Of a stretch of DNA of 6,826 nucleotides, positions 1-6,826 are shown one piece after another. A program made the translations under genes and the position numbers. Position 1 is the first letter of the stretch, and the number at the start of each line of letters is the position of its first letter. This DNA is from Paraspadella gotoi (Eukaryota > Animalia > Chaetognatha): positions 1 through 6,826 of the forward strand of contig JBJCIZ010000087.1 in NCBI GenBank assembly GCA_051294375.1. The letters are read 5' to 3'. A model generated the notes under the pieces. That model did not search any database, had not been told where the DNA came from, and saw only the letters and a program-made list of their open reading frames with translations.

Positions 1-42
1 GCCAAGCCTTACACCACCGGAACCACGCCGCCTTTTAAGAAG

Positions 43-1704
43 ATGGACAACCCCTCCCCTCCAACCGTCCCCCCAGCCAAAGCGGGATGGAAAAAGGGAA
101 CCGTGACGCCAACCACAAGCGCCACGAGTTGCCAAGACGGTAGCAGTAACGCAGCGGATCTCGAGTTCCACACCTTCGAACTCAGTGGATACCTGCAACA
201 ACACTGCCAAACAGGCGGAGAACACGCCGAAATCACGCTCGAAGTACTGAAGGTTATCAACGACGTCAACCTGAAGAACAGACAGGAGATAGCCGTCCTT
301 AGAGGCCGCGTCAAGGACTGCGAGGCCAACCTCGGGTCAAAAATCGACGACCTCCGCGGGATGATGCAACAAATGATGACCCACGTCAGCGGGATGAAAA
401 ACAACCAAGCCAGCGTCGATGAGAGACTCATGAGCCTCTCCCAAGCTCCCCCTCCGCCCTCCAGCTTATATCCTGACCTCCGTGGAGCTGGTCGTCCGGA
501 TCAGTCGCAAGGACACCTCCTAAGACAACCAGCGGACAAAATCAGCCAAATACCACGGGACGAGACGCCCTCGGAAAGCGGGAGAAGTGACCCGCCCTCC
601 TATACCTCTGCCGAGCAGCCGATTAAGCTCGAAAAGAGGAGATCCGATGAGTCGCCAGCAGATTTCTTACGCAGCTTCTACGAAGCCTTCAAGGATTCGC
701 CGACCCCGGACAAGGTGGATCAGCAGCTGCGCGCCTTACTAGCCAGGGACAAAATCGCGAGCCGTTTCATCGAGCCCATCAACCAATCCATGTGGCTGGG
801 ACTCAGAGCCTTCTGCGAAGGCTCCTCGGTAAGCATAGCCGAGGCCCTCGCAGAGGCGAAAATCGAAGTGGATCCGCATGTACACGCCAAGTACGGGCTG
901 GCATTAGTTAATGCTGCCAAAGAAAACTTTGAGGCCGTCAGGGAGAAAGACAAAGCTTCGATCCCTGACTATGTCGCCCAAATGTTGGTTGAAGCGCTCG
1001 AACCTTACGTCCCCGGGATAACCTCCGAGACTTTGGAATGGACAACGCTCTTGGAAAAAGGCGAAACACGCATCCTGGGAAAAGCCATAGAATACAAGCT
1101 AAGGGGNNNNNNNNNNAAGACGACTGACAGCACTATCAGAAAAGTGGTCAAAACCGTGTCAGACGAAGACAAGGAGAAGCTCGTCAACGCCTTAGTTCAA
1201 AAAGGCCAAACGGACAAGGACCCACATGCCAGCGCAACATCATTTTACCAGGGATCCATGTTGCAGGAGATGAACAACATGAGTGAAATGATGAAGGATC
1301 TGAAGAGGGAGCTGGGAAAAACCGGACGCCAGCCAAATCGCCGTGAGGACCGCTACGAGCGCCGGGAGCAACGCAGCCCGAATAGGGACCAAGAGAGGAA
1401 ACCCTACAAAAACCGGGATTGGAAAAAGTCTAATTGGCGCGACGAAAAAAAGGGAAGAAAAAGTCAAAACTTTGGCAAGAGGAGAGATATTGTAGACCTA
1501 ACTCGTGAAATTGAAAATGATTCTGCTTCTGATTTCGATGAAAATAAAGACGATTTCTATTACAACCGTGTGGTGAATAAAAATAGGAAATTAGAAAAAA
1601 GAAAAGGAGAACAACAACAGCTAAGAGATTTCTACAAAAGCCTAGAAAAAAAGTCATGGCAATCGACACACGACCCGTCGAAGGGCACCTTAGAGAGAAG
1701 GTAA
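43..1704 (+). CDS. gag: Gag-like structural polyprotein (553 aa; may be 5'-partial because frame 1 is open back to base 1)
   Basis: Long ORF immediately upstream of and overlapping pol. It has a heptad-like helical N-terminal region (~238-441) and a Pro-rich linker. A capsid-like helical core has DESPADFLRSFYEAF (~646-690) and an MHR-like VREKDKASIPDYVAQM (937-984). An Arg/Lys-rich C-terminal region follows. There is no CCHC knuckle. The call rests mainly on position and architecture. A 10-N gap lies at 1107-1116. Confidence 0.8.
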   Translation: MDNPSPPTVPPAKAGWKKGTVTPTTSATSCQDGSSNAADLEFHTFELSGYLQQHCQTGGEHAEITLEVLKVINDVNLKNRQEIAVLRGRVKDCEANLGSKIDDLRGMMQQMMTHVSGMKNNQASVDERLMSLSQAPPPPSSLYPDLRGAGRPDQSQGHLLRQPADKISQIPRDETPSESGRSDPPSYTSAEQPIKLEKRRSDESPADFLRSFYEAFKDSPTPDKVDQQLRALLARDKIASRFIEPINQSMWLGLRAFCEGSSVSIAEALAEAKIEVDPHVHAKYGLALVNAAKENFEAVREKDKASIPDYVAQMLVEALEPYVPGITSETLEWTTLLEKGETRILGKAIEYKLRXXXXKTTDSTIRKVVKTVSDEDKEKLVNALVQKGQTDKDPHASATSFYQGSMLQEMNNMSEMMKDLKRELGKTGRQPNRREDRYERREQRSPNRDQERKPYKNRDWKKSNWRDEKKGRKSQNFGKRRDIVDLTREIENDSASDFDENKDDFYYNRVVNKNRKLEKRKGEQQQLRDFYKSLEKKSWQSTHDPSKGTLERR

Positions 1705-4700
1705 AGACACTCGCTCAAACGGCAAACATGCTAAGAGGAAAATCAACAGCATCACGGATGCACAAGTTGTTCAAACCTCTCGATGCCAGCGAGATTGCCC
1801 TCGCCAACAAATATCTCCACAAAATGGGGTGGAAGGACTGGAGCTGTACAGACATGGCAGGCCAAAGAGCCATAATATCAAGGTCGAAAACCTGCGCCAA
1901 GCTAATGAGAAGGGCGAAGCGAAAGGATAATGCTCCTCTTCCTCCTCCTCCTCCTCCTCCTCCTCCGGCCAAGGAAACAATCCAACCCGACGCAAACGCC
2001 AATAGCGACGCCAGCAACGCCCTCCCCAACGCTTACCCTCACCCACAACAAGGAAAAAGGAACAGACTCAATCCAACAAAACGTGGAGAAAGGCTGGGGC
2101 TAAGGAAACTGCGACCAACAGGCAGCAGAAACAACCCAACCTACCAGATAGTCGCTGGATGTCAAAGTGGAGAATCTCTCCATCAAGCGACCATTAGGAA
2201 AGTCGAACTCGAGTGCCATTTGCCGGAAGACTTCCCTCCTCCAAAAGGAAAGTTGNNNNNNNNNNAAGACGAAAGAGACATGCCGGGGCTACCAGAAAAG
2301 ATTGATAATCCGATACAGGGGACTGTAGGGCCAGAACCTAGAGACGACACGGATATCAACCGCCTCACTGGCAAAAATAGCTACATCCCAGCGGTGATAG
2401 CAGGAGCACCTGCCAGCTGCTTATACGATACAGGTGCATCAATTAACACTGTACCACGAATGTTCGTAGAAAAATGGGGCCTATCTAAACACACTTATCA
2501 TGGAACGCCACTGCGCTTATCCACCGCCACTGGCACGATCACGTTAACTGAGAGAATTAACCTCAGGGTGATGTTCCAAAAATGGGTCCTCCGCACCATC
2601 TTCTATGTCTCTGCCGACGAAAACGACAAAGACATAATCATTGGAACGGCCATCACCAATCCAGGCCCTCCAGACCAGCTATGGGTAGTACAACCCTCAA
2701 ATCAGAGGAAGGAACTGCAAATTGCCACCATGGACGGCAAACCCATCACGCACCTGTTTGGAGACAAACATGAGGCCCTCAAAGCGGCCAGATGGCTCGC
2801 TCGAGGAAACGTCGATGAGCACACCATCTTACCCATACACTCAGAGAGAGGCGAAGATGGAAAAACTAGGCTAACCTCAAACAAAGCTTACTGGAAAACC
2901 CTAACCGGAACAAGATGGATTGTCGAAGCGGAAGACAAAGAAAAAGCCTACATCGCAGATGGCGACCAGCTCAAAGAGGGAGTAGAATTGGACGCTGAAC
3001 CCGGATATTGGGGAACAGCACGACCCCTAATAACAAACGAAGCCAAGGTCGACCTGCATCTTGAAACAAACATCACGGCCGAACCCGTACAAGCCGACCT
3101 ATCAGGCGAAAAACCCCTATTAAGGAAAGTACGGAAGGATCATATCCCGGCCACTACGATCGTCCATCATAAGCCGAGCGCAGAAGAATTAAAATCGGTG
3201 GAGGAAGCACGCCAAAAGAGAAAGCAAAAACACGACGAACGTGGCAAGGAAGCATTCCTGAAACCATTCAAGGACGTCGACCCAAGCCNNNNNNNNNNNN
3301 NNNNNNNNNTCTGGGAGATTGTCTGGGAGTTTCGAGACGTCTTTGGAGAATCGATAAACGATTGCAAGGAGGGCTTCCTCAACTACAGGGTCGACCTCGG
3401 TTATACAAACGAGGACCTCCCAAAGCCGAGATTCGCCAATCAGGGGCCAGTAAAGAAAGCGGCCCTCAAACGGTACCTGGAAGTTTACGAGAAAGCAGGC
3501 ATTGTATCTAGAACAAGGAATGAAGCCTACTCGAACGCCTTTCTCATAAAAAAACCCGGACACGTTGCTGAGGGACAGGACCAAATGAACGACGAAACTT
3601 TTGCGAAACAGTGGCGATTAATATGCGACCTCTCTTCCGTAAATAATAACATCTCCACATATGCAACAGAACCACAAACGATAGCCTCAATACTCGAACA
3701 ATACAAACCGCACGAACTCCAGTGCTCAGTGGATATCTTGGCCTGCTTCCATCAGGTCAATCTAACGGACCGCTGCAAGCCGGTTACAACCTTCGCCGGA
3801 GCGGGTCATAACTGGTGGATGAATAAGCTGCCAATGGGTGGGGTCAACAGCGTCAACGTCCTCCAAGCTATACTGGATGAGATCTTCCAAGACTTAGGCA
3901 CAGACGTCAAAAGTTTTCTCGTCTACGTGGACGACCTCATCCTAACAGCAAAGTCGCCAGAGGACATGGCCCACAGACTCCGCGATCTCTTGCAAAGATG
4001 CAGAGACGAGAACGTGGTTCTCAAATGGACAAAGAGCGTCCTCCTGCGAAAAGAGGATATCAAGATCCTGGGCTTCAGTATCTCAAAGAGCAAGTTAATG
4101 CCACAAAGAGAGAAACTCGACGCGGTCGAGCTCAAACTGAAATCGCTGAAAACGCAGAAGGAGCTCAGAGCGATGCTGGCATCATTGAATTACTACAGAT
4201 GCTTCACCCACCGATTCTCATACATCGCCCAACCTCTCCACGCCCTCACCCTGCTTGACAAAAAAGAATTCAAGCTAACGGATAAACACACAAAGATGCT
4301 GCAGCTCCTTATAGAGGAAATAAGGTCATCGCCCGGCTTAAACTTCCTTAATGACGCAAGAATCAAGCAAGGCTCATACAAAATTTATGCTGATGCCAGC
4401 ACAAGCGCGATGGGTGGGTTAATCACCGCGACTGCAGATGGCGTCGAATATCCACTGTCTTTTCACTCAAAGTCTTTCCCTGACGAGTACAGGATAAAGC
4501 ATATCAACATCCTGGAGACTCTTGCATTCAACATGATGGTCCGCAAATTCAAGGGTTACACCTGTGGACGGAGCGTCACTCTAGTCACCGACTCACAGTA
4601 TTTTAAGAGGGTGATGGATCTCCAGCACGATAGGCAACAATTACTGCCCACCAACGTGCTCAGGTGGATTACCGAAATACGACAAGAATGTCAACCTAAG

Positions 4701-6824
4701 GAGATCATCCTCGTCAAGAGCGAGGATAATCCGGCAGATTTCTTGACCCGTTTCACGGACCAAGGGCAAGTCACGCCCCTCGACACACCTTTCTTTCCGG
4801 CAGGCTTCGATATCTCGGGAAAATACGAACCTGGCTTTGCCGAAAATCCCGTGTATGACCAACAAACCCCAGAACATTTGGATCTCATCACGGGACACGC
4901 CCCAACTCTGGCGCTATTAGCGCAAACGCTGACAGAAGACACCAAGGCCTTCAGAGCGAAATTCTTTGAGTTTGTGCGACAACGATTTCCACACAGAAAG
5001 GCTAATATCGAGAAATTATATGGAAAACCAAAAACCAAAGATCCTGACACATTCATCAGAACCATATCAGCCAAGGACTGGATCCNNNNNNNNNNNNNNN
5101 NNNAAATGCTCAACGAGATGACTGGGATCACCTTGGTCATGATGGATGAGGACTCAACCAAAGAAACAGGTTGCAAATTCGAAAGAATTTACGGATCTCC
5201 TACAGACAATCGGGTATTAAAAATCTTTAGAACCATCACGGGGCAAGTCAGCCTTATCAGTGATGAACGACAAGAAAGATCACTGCGACCAATCATCCCT
5301 GAAACCATCCAAACCATCAAAGTCGACAAACTAAAGCAGCCAGAACGCAGAGGACGGCCAAAGGCACAAAAAGTTGATACTCGACACGTTGACACCCTCC
5401 CACAGGACTTCATAAACCTGCAGGTGGGCTCAGCCAATGCAGAGGCTGCCACGACATCACCCACGGAACAATCCCAGACAGTAGAGGCACTAGACACAAA
5501 TTGGCCTGGGGCCCATCAGGAGCTGATGGTCGATAGCGCCCTCGAAGCGGACGTCGATGCCACAGAAGAGGAAATTGCAAAAGAAATCAGGAAACCGCAG
5601 GAAAAACAACCGGACCTCATCCCGATCGCTGCTGAGATAAAGAGATGGCAAGATGAGGAAGAATCATTCAGATTAGTCGTCAAAGCTCTCAGAGAAGGCG
5701 ACCGCGAAAAAGCGAGGCAAAAACTGAATGAAAAGATGCAAAAAAGAAAAACTGTTACCGAGAAGTACTTGTCTAACTGCCTCGATGATTTTGACATCAC
5801 CGAAAACGACATTCTAATCATTAAAGGCTTCAAAGCCGACATCCCCACAAGAAAATTCGTCGTACCAACATCAAAGGCAGAAGAAGTTACAAAACGGATT
5901 CATGAACGCTTTGGACACCCGGGCCGAGACCGAACAGCATTCATCACGGCCCAGTATATATCTGCCCCGGGACTCACTGCATCCGCTGCTAAATGCCTTA
6001 GAAATTGCGATAATTGCGCAAAAGCGACAGATGCTCAACGTCACAACGAAACACCATCAAGCCCAAACCTCGCCATCGCCCCATGGGAATCGCTTAGCAT
6101 CGATGTAATGCATCTTCCCCCAGTCGCTGGGCACAATTACGTTCTGGTAGCCTCGGATAATGCATCCGCATACACCTGGGCTATCCCGCTACGCCGAGCA
6201 GATGCTACAACAATCGTAAAAGCTCTCGATGAAAAGATTTTTCTCCAACACGGATCCTTCATGGAAGTAAATTTCGATGGAGCAACCCAATTAAATGGAT
6301 CGGCAATGAAATCAATACTTGACTTGCTAGATACAGTAGGCAGACGCGTCCTCGTGGGCAGAAAGGACAGCAACAGAGCCGAAAGAGACATTGGAAGAAT
6401 CCGTCAGGCACTACGCAAAGCGGCGGACGACCGACCAAACAAATGGCTCGAACAGCTGCCTCATTTAATGCTCCTCCTAAATGCGACGCCCATAGTCGGA
6501 TGGAAGACAGACATGTCGCCGCACGAAATACAATTTGGCCATAGACCAAGGATAATCGAAAGCGCCGACGATTTCACAAAAAGAAATCTCATCGACTTCA
6601 TCAGACAAAGGGCAGACAAACAGGAGAAAGCCCAAGCACAGCTGGCCAACCAAAGGACGAAACTCTACAAACAATCGGCCAGAAGGAACCCATACAGACG
6701 GCCAGAAGAGATTAAGGTCGGCGACCTAGTCCTAACCAGACGCGATCTTATCATGACCGGAACAGCGACCACAGAAAATAAGATCAAGAGAATCTACTCT
6801 GGCCCTCACAAGGTTATAGAGAAA
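1587..6824 (+). CDS. pol: Pol polyprotein (PR-RT-RNase H-IN), 3'-partial; -1 frame relative to gag; first ATG at 1656
   Basis: Manual translation of frame 3: the last upstream stop is TAG 1584-1586, and there is no stop from 1587 to the window end (1746 codons, across three N gaps). It contains the motifs LYDTGAS, YVDD, YADAS, HX4HX29CX2C and D-D-E. Confidence 0.95.
1647..1702 (+). promoter_or_regulatory. Candidate -1 programmed ribosomal frameshift signal (A_AAA_AAG heptamer plus small downstream hairpins)
   Basis: An X_XXY_YYZ heptamer phased on gag codons (GAA AAA AAG) at 1647-1653 lies inside the 118-nt gag/pol overlap (1587-1704). Two possible 5-bp stems follow: TCGAC 1663-1667/GTCGA 1677-1681 and ACCTT 1687-1691/AAGGT 1698-1702. 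Confidence 0.5.
1941..1967 (+). repeat. (CCT)8-CCG trinucleotide microsatellite encoding a 9-proline tract in Pol
   Basis: Read directly: cct x8 followed by ccg, in the pol frame giving APLPPPPPPPPPAKE. Confidence 0.95.
2382..2657 (+). other. Retropepsin-type aspartic protease domain of Pol
   Basis: YIPAVIAGAPASCLYDTGASINTV (catalytic DTG at 2427-2435), flap-like LSTATG, and C-terminal DIIIGTA (IG at 2640-2645). Boundaries are approximate. Confidence 0.92.
3312..4370 (+). other. Reverse transcriptase domain (fingers/palm/thumb) of Pol
   Basis: EFRDVF, AGIV, AFLIKK...WRLICDLSSVN, SVDILACFHQV (Asp 3732-3734), TTF, KLPMGGVNS (LPMG 3828-3839), VYVDDLIL (YVDD 3924-3935), ILGFSIS, and thumb ELRAMLASLNYYRCF...IAQPLHALT. 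Boundaries are approximate. Confidence 0.96.
4380..4751 (+). other. RNase H domain of Pol
   Basis: IYADASTSAMGG (Asp 4392-4394), PLSFHSK, HINILETLA (Glu 4515-4517), LVTDSQY (Asp 4590-4592), LRW, and NPADFLTR (Asp 4737-4739). The D-E-D-D tetrad is complete. Confidence 0.93.
5346..5363 (+). other. AT-hook-like motif (RRGRPK) in Pol upstream of integrase
   Basis: cgc aga gga cgg cca aag = RRGRPK, which matches the AT-hook core R-G-R-P flanked by basic residues. Confidence 0.55.
5637..6824 (+). other. Integrase domain of Pol (HHCC zinc-binding, DDE core, GPY/F-like module), 3'-partial
   Basis: IKRWQDEE...FVVP lead-in; His 5901, His 5916, Cys 6006, Cys 6015 (H-X4-H-X29-C-X2-C); PWESLSIDV (Asp 6102); NFDGATQL (Asp 6276); SNRAER (Glu 6381); WLEQLP..LLLN, SPHEIQFG, IKVGDLVL and KIKRIYSGPHKV (GPH 6801-6809). 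Confidence 0.95.
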
Positions 6825-6826
6825 GA

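Follow-up and report, generated by a model that had tools for sequence, protein, structure and literature searches.

The stretch of DNA analyzed here (hereafter the window) comprises 6,826 nucleotides of a contig from the chaetognath Paraspadella gotoi (JBJCIZ010000087.1, positions 1 to 6,826 of the forward strand; assembly GCA_051294375.1). It is the interior of a Gypsy-type long terminal repeat (LTR) retrotransposon, with a pol gene in the order protease (PR), reverse transcriptase (RT), RNase H (RH) and integrase (IN). Between RNase H and integrase, Pol contains an inserted segment that is conserved in relatives, where it also follows RNase H, and the columns aligned with the catalytic Cys and His of ovarian tumor (OTU) deubiquitinases hold neither residue. 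We tentatively propose that this Gypsy lineage carries, after RNase H, a conserved pseudo-enzyme of predicted OTU fold that may serve the RT-RNase H protein as a C-terminal binding module without enzymatic activity. Transposon-borne OTU domains and accessory domains in the RNase H-integrase bridge are known kinds; a conserved pseudo-OTU in this slot of a Gypsy Pol would be a new variant.

An extra segment between RNase H and integrase

The distance from the end of RNase H to the first His of the integrase HHCC motif is 383 residues, as compared with 32 to 198 (median 78) in 12 other long Pol proteins in which both motifs could be located. The in-frame segment at 4752-5636 that the initial annotation had singled out spans 295 codons, and the pol frame is stop-free across it. 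The landmarks that this annotation named, an Arg (4953-4955), a Trp (5079-5081) and a run of 18 N (5086-5103), were all in place, as was all the sequence that it quoted. The domain was present in none of the 12 distant Pols found by the full-length Pol search.

X7 (2328 nt) and X9 (2466 nt), two contigs that come from two other studies, match the window at 4224-5020 and again from 5160 onward with an equal offset, the two sides being assigned to the same contig by equal length and depth. Because the offset is equal on both sides, RNase H, the domain and the integrase are colinear in X7 and X9, and the N run, which according to the initial annotation hides part of the W-box, does not alter the length of the segment. 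Since contigs of two other studies keep the same register, the extra segment is not an assembly artifact.

The initial annotation had placed the domain at 4869..5261. A real conserved domain does lie there, but its start has to be moved upstream, as the conserved unit begins earlier, with a motif at 4803-4826. The spacer that holds this motif is likely an N-terminal extension of the domain. Downstream, the linker is likely disordered and, as we infer, likely holds the RH/IN cleavage site. In diverged copies, joints leading from 5185-5195 to 5494 or to 5725-5731 hint at a variable linker; their short sides were only 22-26 letters long and they were not counted.

Relatives and conservation

A HMMER search of 1.84 billion representatives returned 35 matches, six of them in the domain. 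A profile search then gave 13 matches among 2194 candidates (E 1e-19 to 1e-67) and, with one cluster member added, the set reached 16 related protein fragments, all from other samples; JGI contributed 14, most of them belonging to one family, and ENA two. RNase H runs directly into the domain in four of them (P0016, P0049, P0051 and P0056), and the 39-residue spacer has a constant length in all four relatives that span it. Identity to the window, measured on 12 of the 16 relatives and two RNase H-only fragments, fell in the order RNase H (45-76%), spacer (31-48%), domain (26-46%) and downstream linker (14-22%).

Within the domain, the Trp was present in 12 of 12 rows and the Arg in 12 of 13, as the initial annotation would lead one to expect, and a dozen more columns were invariant across sequences down to 25-33% identity. 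Judging from these columns, the domain is kept by selection. The conserved Arg and Trp, together with a helix Glu, form the OTU core pattern. This Glu was found in 9 of 11 relatives, its position being unread in the window, and the pattern was seen in part in fetched viral OTUs. The family also has polar residues of its own: Arg, His or Lys at column 33 in the Cys loop (10/13), His at column 98 after the conserved Trp (11/11 relatives) and Arg at column 144 in the His loop (8/8). We take the column 98 His to lie in an OTU variable loop.

Searches for longer relatives and related loci were negative within their scope: the word-based search yielded none among 173 candidates, and DNA scans confirmed none in metagenome contigs (129 + 298 pattern matches) or in viral contigs (129 + 182). 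In prokaryote genomes, 5 of 112 pattern matches passed tblastn (L143:8001-8174, L144:6511-6660, L145:2642-2854, L146:2960-3160 and L147:2894-3073). They were rejected as unrelated proteins with one short motif shared by chance; by inspection, they are presumably PHP-like phosphoesterases and O-methyltransferases.

Predicted OTU fold

Structure prediction, two fold searches, a language-model atlas and weak Pfam matches in relatives all point to the OTU fold first suspected by the initial annotation, and we consider it highly probable that the domain adopts this fold. The AlphaFold model built with a 17-row alignment had a predicted local distance difference test (pLDDT) of 66 and a predicted TM-score (pTM) of 0.62; a single-sequence model (pLDDT 35) was unusable. 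With Foldseek, the OTU family accounted for 37 of the 40 listed PDB rows, OTUD1 being first (E 0.064, probability 0.92-0.94, TM 0.50-0.52). The viral library BFVD gave weak rows, several of them named OTU (best E 0.027).

A VIA search of 48,161 PDB chains ranked OTUs or OTU-like viral proteases at all of positions 1-32. The top rows were OTUD1 (Z 8.9, root-mean-square deviation [rmsd] 3.2, 114 aligned residues), OTUD3 (8.8, 3.1, 111) and the OTU of Crimean-Congo hemorrhagic fever virus (CCHFV; 8.3, 3.3, 115). The OTU match spans model residues 23-154, whereas the first unrelated fold reached Z 4.0 over 54 aligned residues. A second structural comparison gave Z 9.2 and rmsd 3.6 over 121 aligned residues for OTUD1. 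Identity in the structural alignments was 6-15%. Two VIA rows, Ceg23 and a maize virus protease, were counted with the OTU-like group; the other family labels came from entry titles and from two publications (PMC3705208, PMC6357015).

The OTU profile PF02338 matched 4 of the 16 relatives (E 0.0012, 0.014, 0.062 and 0.16), only in mid-profile. The best relative scored 19.8 bits and none reached the gathering score (23.3 bits). The window itself gave no match. In the language-model atlas, relative P0050 scored 0.93 to hypothetical clusters of giant viruses and 0.92 to a cluster with 19% PF02338; the unbroken 90-residue N-terminal piece scored 0.81 at best, which is a lead only. Against PDB sequences, the family profiles matched only designed repeat proteins and gyrase (E 0.005-0.6), plus one enzymatic polyprotein via its RNase H; these matches were rejected.

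Loss of the catalytic residues

The catalytic His is residue 151 in CCHFV, 222 in yeast Otu1 and 869 in turnip yellow mosaic virus (TYMV) (PMC6357015), and the structural alignments end with model residue 154 facing residues 156, 227 and 874, respectively. As all three alignment ends give model residue 149 (Gln 5244-5246) as the catalytic His position, the register assigned to the lost triad is quite likely correct on this model. In the eight rows that cover the His column, it holds Gln (2) or Ser (6) and never His, and the third triad position, two residues further, is Ser or Ala with no Asp or Asn. At the Cys column (35), all 13 rows have Pro or Leu; column 36 has no Cys in any of the 13, and a single Cys occurs at column 33 in one relative. 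An intact triad was seen in none of the 16 fragments. The initial annotation had reported both residues missing from the window, and they proved to be absent from every relative covering those columns, in agreement with the alignment ends. With His in 0/8 rows and Cys in 0/13, the whole family is therefore best described as pseudo-OTU. In summary of this site, a Cys at the start of helix 1 and a last-strand His with Asp or Asn, as in active OTUs, were not found, while the OTU fold was found on the predicted model.

Proposed role and alternative explanations

In the scenario that we propose, an ancestor of this lineage would have acquired an active OTU gene, in the way of other mobile elements, and catalysis would have been lost before the sampled lineages split. 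Cleavage by the element protease might then fall in the variable linker, so that the domain remains on RT-RH. The Cys, His and variable loops line the cleft of OTUs, as described in PMC3705208; the former active-site cleft, now with conserved basic residues, could hold on to nucleic acid, or to some acidic partner, while reverse transcription proceeds in the particle. The nature of this ligand is the weakest step, and our choice of it is provisional. As for the place of attachment, the initial annotation had left open whether the module is fused to integrase or to RNase H. Since a conserved spacer of fixed length joins the domain to RNase H and an unconserved, variable linker joins it to integrase, the domain likely stays on RT-RH, and attachment to integrase is disfavored. 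Two precedents are FAM105A, reported as a dead OTU without ubiquitin interaction (PMC7862380), and the pseudo-RNase H that fills the RNase H-integrase slot in insect errantiviruses (PMC13524379, section 7).

Several points weigh against this proposal. With respect to the fold, the window segment matched no Pfam family and nothing among PDB sequences, and the family profiles found no OTU chain there either. Comparison by hhalign with 11 viral OTUs was not significant (score 14.0, against 12.9 +/- 2.1 and a maximum of 19.9 in 100 block shuffles), nor was a search of the family with a hidden Markov model of the same 11 OTUs; at the sequence level, support for the OTU call is weak. The model itself is middling, with residues 12-26 and 117-135 at pLDDT <50, every Foldseek match was weaker than E 0.001, and the VIA tool warns that best Z values of 7-8 are common by chance. 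The catalytic register depends on the end points of the structural alignments and assumes that their last residues are gap-free, and the variable-loop placing of column 98 is an assumption. Furthermore, not counting the window, the 16 relatives represent only some three independent groups, and many of them seem to be decayed. The domain also changes more rapidly than RNase H (34-42% vs. 45-52% identity in the same three relatives); in P0049, identity is 26% over 38 domain residues and 76% in RNase H. Finally, the charge of the domain is only mildly basic overall (19 Lys + Arg vs. 16 Asp + Glu).

Another explanation, which we find rather unlikely, is that the domain binds ubiquitin chains, or ubiquitinated Pol or Gag, without cutting them, thereby protecting the particle against degradation or immune signaling, as a decoy for ubiquitin or ubiquitin-like proteins. 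Active OTU, Ulp1 and Josephin domains are described as recurring in Helitron, Ginger1 and non-LTR elements (PMC2836005, PMC6431247, PMC13405545), and the aromatic residue before the His loop, which contacts the ubiquitin tail in OTUs according to PMC3705208, remains Phe in 7 of 8 rows. That the domain diverges faster than RNase H would also suit a host-facing part; yet ubiquitin is nearly invariant, so that such divergence would be unexpected for a surface that binds it. Moreover, in the relatives the Trp is followed by two bulky residues, which would tend to obstruct the narrow tail channel, whereas the viral OTUs retrieved mostly have Gly or Ala there. FAM105A, a characterized pseudo-OTU, does not interact with ubiquitin, as reported in PMC7862380. 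A predicted complex of P0050 with a viral ubiquitin, run without alignments, was uninformative (score 0.00). A broader claim, that an old and unnamed animal Gypsy lineage turned a captured deubiquitinase into a non-catalytic, ubiquitin-chain decoy arm of Pol or else rebuilt a Cys/His site on the OTU scaffold, seems doubtful to us. If true, this would be the first pseudo-deubiquitinase counter-defense module in an LTR element and would point to ubiquitin-based host restriction of retrotransposon particles.

It is improbable that the domain is a passive relic, that is, an OTU that lost its activity after capture and persists only because an in-frame passenger of Pol has to stay folded and stop-free. 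Such a history would fit conserved columns that are mostly core hydrophobic or Gly/Pro, a domain less conserved than RNase H, and the fact that most Gypsy Pols manage without it. However, the domain is retained where RNase H is only 45-52% identical and the adjoining linker is randomized, and polar residues foreign to OTUs are invariant (His 11/11, Cys-Lys 11/11, Arg 8/8).

We consider it very improbable that the domain is not OTU-derived and that a mediocre model of a small alpha/beta protein resembles OTUs by chance. The absence of any fold match below E 0.001 and of a significant profile-profile match, as well as the 6-15% structural identity, speak for chance resemblance, but Pfam on relatives, language-model features and structure all name OTU and no other family recurs. 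The gap between Z 8.9 for OTU and 4.0 for the first unrelated fold, over a match covering residues 23-154, likewise argues against it. Least likely of all is a catalytic site that moved, with the Cys of the T-x-C-K motif and the post-Trp His of relatives (each 11/11 in covering rows) forming a new dyad or metal site, because this Cys lies 24 residues before the His-site strand, at pLDDT <50 and away from the start of helix 1, where OTUs have their catalytic residue.

Comparison with known systems and significance

The closest structures, OTUD1 (PDB 4BOP), OTUD3 (4BOU) and the viral OTU of CCHFV (3PHU), resemble the domain in their minimal fold of about 130-150 residues, as predicted here (Z 8.3-9.2, rmsd 3.1-3.6, 111-121 aligned), and in the order of the Arg and the Trp. 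They differ from it in that the domain has no catalytic Cys, His or Asp/Asn, is only 7-11% identical to them and sits in a retrotransposon Pol. Human FAM105A/OTULINL also combines an OTU fold with a disrupted triad, according to PMC7862380 and PMC3705208 (6DRM; Z 6.2, rmsd 4.5, 131 aligned). However, it is a cellular protein of the endoplasmic reticulum with a large OTULIN-type domain and a retained His, whereas the domain described here is minimal, belongs to a mobile element and has lost both Cys and His.

Among mobile elements, OTU domains fused to a core protein have been described in Ginger1 transposases and Helitron/Helentron RepHel (PMC2836005, PMC6431247) and in the ORF2p of a Symbiodinium non-LTR element (PMC13405545). 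Ginger1 also has a Gypsy-like integrase (PMC2836005). In these descriptions, the OTU is a cysteine protease at the C- or N-terminus of proteins from DNA transposons or non-LTR elements; here it is internal, dead and part of an LTR element. The bridge of errantiviruses, with its pseudo-RNase H and mini domains, offers a parallel in position, being folded, apparently non-catalytic and located between RNase H and integrase of a Ty3/gypsy Pol (PMC13524379). Those bridge domains mostly have RNase H-like folds; the main text of that article does not contain the word OTU, and an unnamed outlier domain there might be an exception. Ty3 (Metaviridae) Gag-Pol shares with the window element the gag, the -1 overlapping pol and the PR-RT-RH-IN order and provides, by a narrow margin, the closest solved RT, but the window element is very divergent and its RNase H-integrase bridge is about 300 residues longer. 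Full-text literature searches, whose coverage left out Repbase Reports, GyDB and subscription journals, revealed no LTR element with an OTU or pseudo-OTU in its RNase H-integrase bridge.

The predicted OTU fold would join the types of cargo carried in the RNase H-integrase bridge, here as a pseudo-enzyme throughout the family and one that escapes Pfam; for this reason, annotations of LTR elements probably undercount captured domains of the ubiquitin system. Few pseudo-OTUs have been characterized (e.g., FAM105A), and a small, soluble one kept over deep divergence would be a tractable case for learning why dead deubiquitinases persist. It also bears on whether hosts restrict retrotransposons via ubiquitin.

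Architecture of the element

The features of the window are listed in Table 1. Pfam matches follow the Gypsy order of protease, RT, RNase H, integrase zinc finger and integrase core, and each of the four Pol enzymes has its catalytic motifs. An integrase with HHCC, DDE and GPY/F motifs is described as a Ty3/Gypsy hallmark (PMC2836005); the GPY/F-like motif here reads YSGPH, a variant.

Table 1. Features of the window, with positions counted from its first nucleotide.
Feature	Position	Strand	Observation
Gag-like open reading frame (ORF)	1..1704	+	Open at the 5' end of the window; 567 aa seen
pol ORF	1587..6824	+	1746 aa seen; open at the 3' end; stop-free; overlaps gag in the -1 frame
Aspartic protease	2385..2648	+	PF13650, E 7.9e-6; DTGA at 2427-2438
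Reverse transcriptase core	3630..4082	+	PF00078, E 5.3e-17; YVDD at 3924-3935
RNase H	4374..4751	+	PF17917, E 2.5e-10; D, E, D, D motifs; end motif 4728-4751
Spacer	4752..4868	+	39 residues; 31-48% identity in 6 relatives; G-F-D-x-x-G-x-Y motif at 4803-4826
Putative pseudo-OTU domain	4869..5261	+	Predicted OTU fold, without catalytic Cys or His
Cys-site Pro-Thr (assigned)	4902..4907	+	Start of helix 1; TYMV Cys783 maps to Pro (4902-4904), CCHFV Cys40 to Thr
N run	5086..5103	.	18 N; seven codons after the conserved Trp unread
T-x-C-K motif	5166..5177	+	Family-specific; Cys in 11/11 rows; in a low-confidence part of the model
His-site Gln (assigned)	5244..5246	+	CCHFV His151, yeast Otu1 His222 and TYMV His869 map here; His in 0/8 rows
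Linker	5262..5636	+	125 aa; acidic (25 D+E); hydrophobic fraction 0.22; 14-22% identity to relatives
Integrase	5862..6824	+	PF17921, E 2.8e-8; PF00665, E 2.9e-4; HHCC 5901-6017; D-D-E 6096-6389; GPY/F-like motif 6795-6809

The gag-like ORF had no Pfam family below E 0.1; its product has no CCHC knuckle, and Arg, Lys and Asp are abundant in the C-terminal part. The gag/pol overlap is 118 nt long, and two stretches of seven A (1595-1601 and around 1645-1651) are candidate frameshift sites; a strict slippery-heptamer rule listed no site over the overlap. Upstream of the protease, pol encodes about 265 basic, low-complexity residues (1587-2384) with a poly-proline run at about 1935-1967. Protease and RT are separated by about 210 residues (2650-3290) that look partly folded and had no Pfam match and no usable match in the language-model atlas; a decayed dUTPase-like domain is described in the corresponding position of other elements (PMC6431247). 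Before the integrase zinc finger, a lead-in of 88 residues (5637-5900) is helical and basic and is probably the mini domain described for Ty3/gypsy bridges in section 7 of PMC13524379.

The window starts inside gag and stops inside integrase, and no long repeat and no tRNA gene were found within it. Its four N runs (1107-1116, 2256-2265, 3289-3309 and 5086-5103) leave the reading frames unbroken. Among solved structures, the RT was closest to Ty3 RT (E 8e-24), followed closely by PDB entry 8r0s (E 1.4e-22), which we take to be the RT of cauliflower mosaic virus. Divergence of the element is high, with only 21-27% identity to the 12 long Pols found. No RNA run was among the sequencing runs listed for the element. 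In one of these runs (X1), 141 contigs matched positions 3400-5020, of which 118 were <90% alike, indicating that the host holds many diverged copies.

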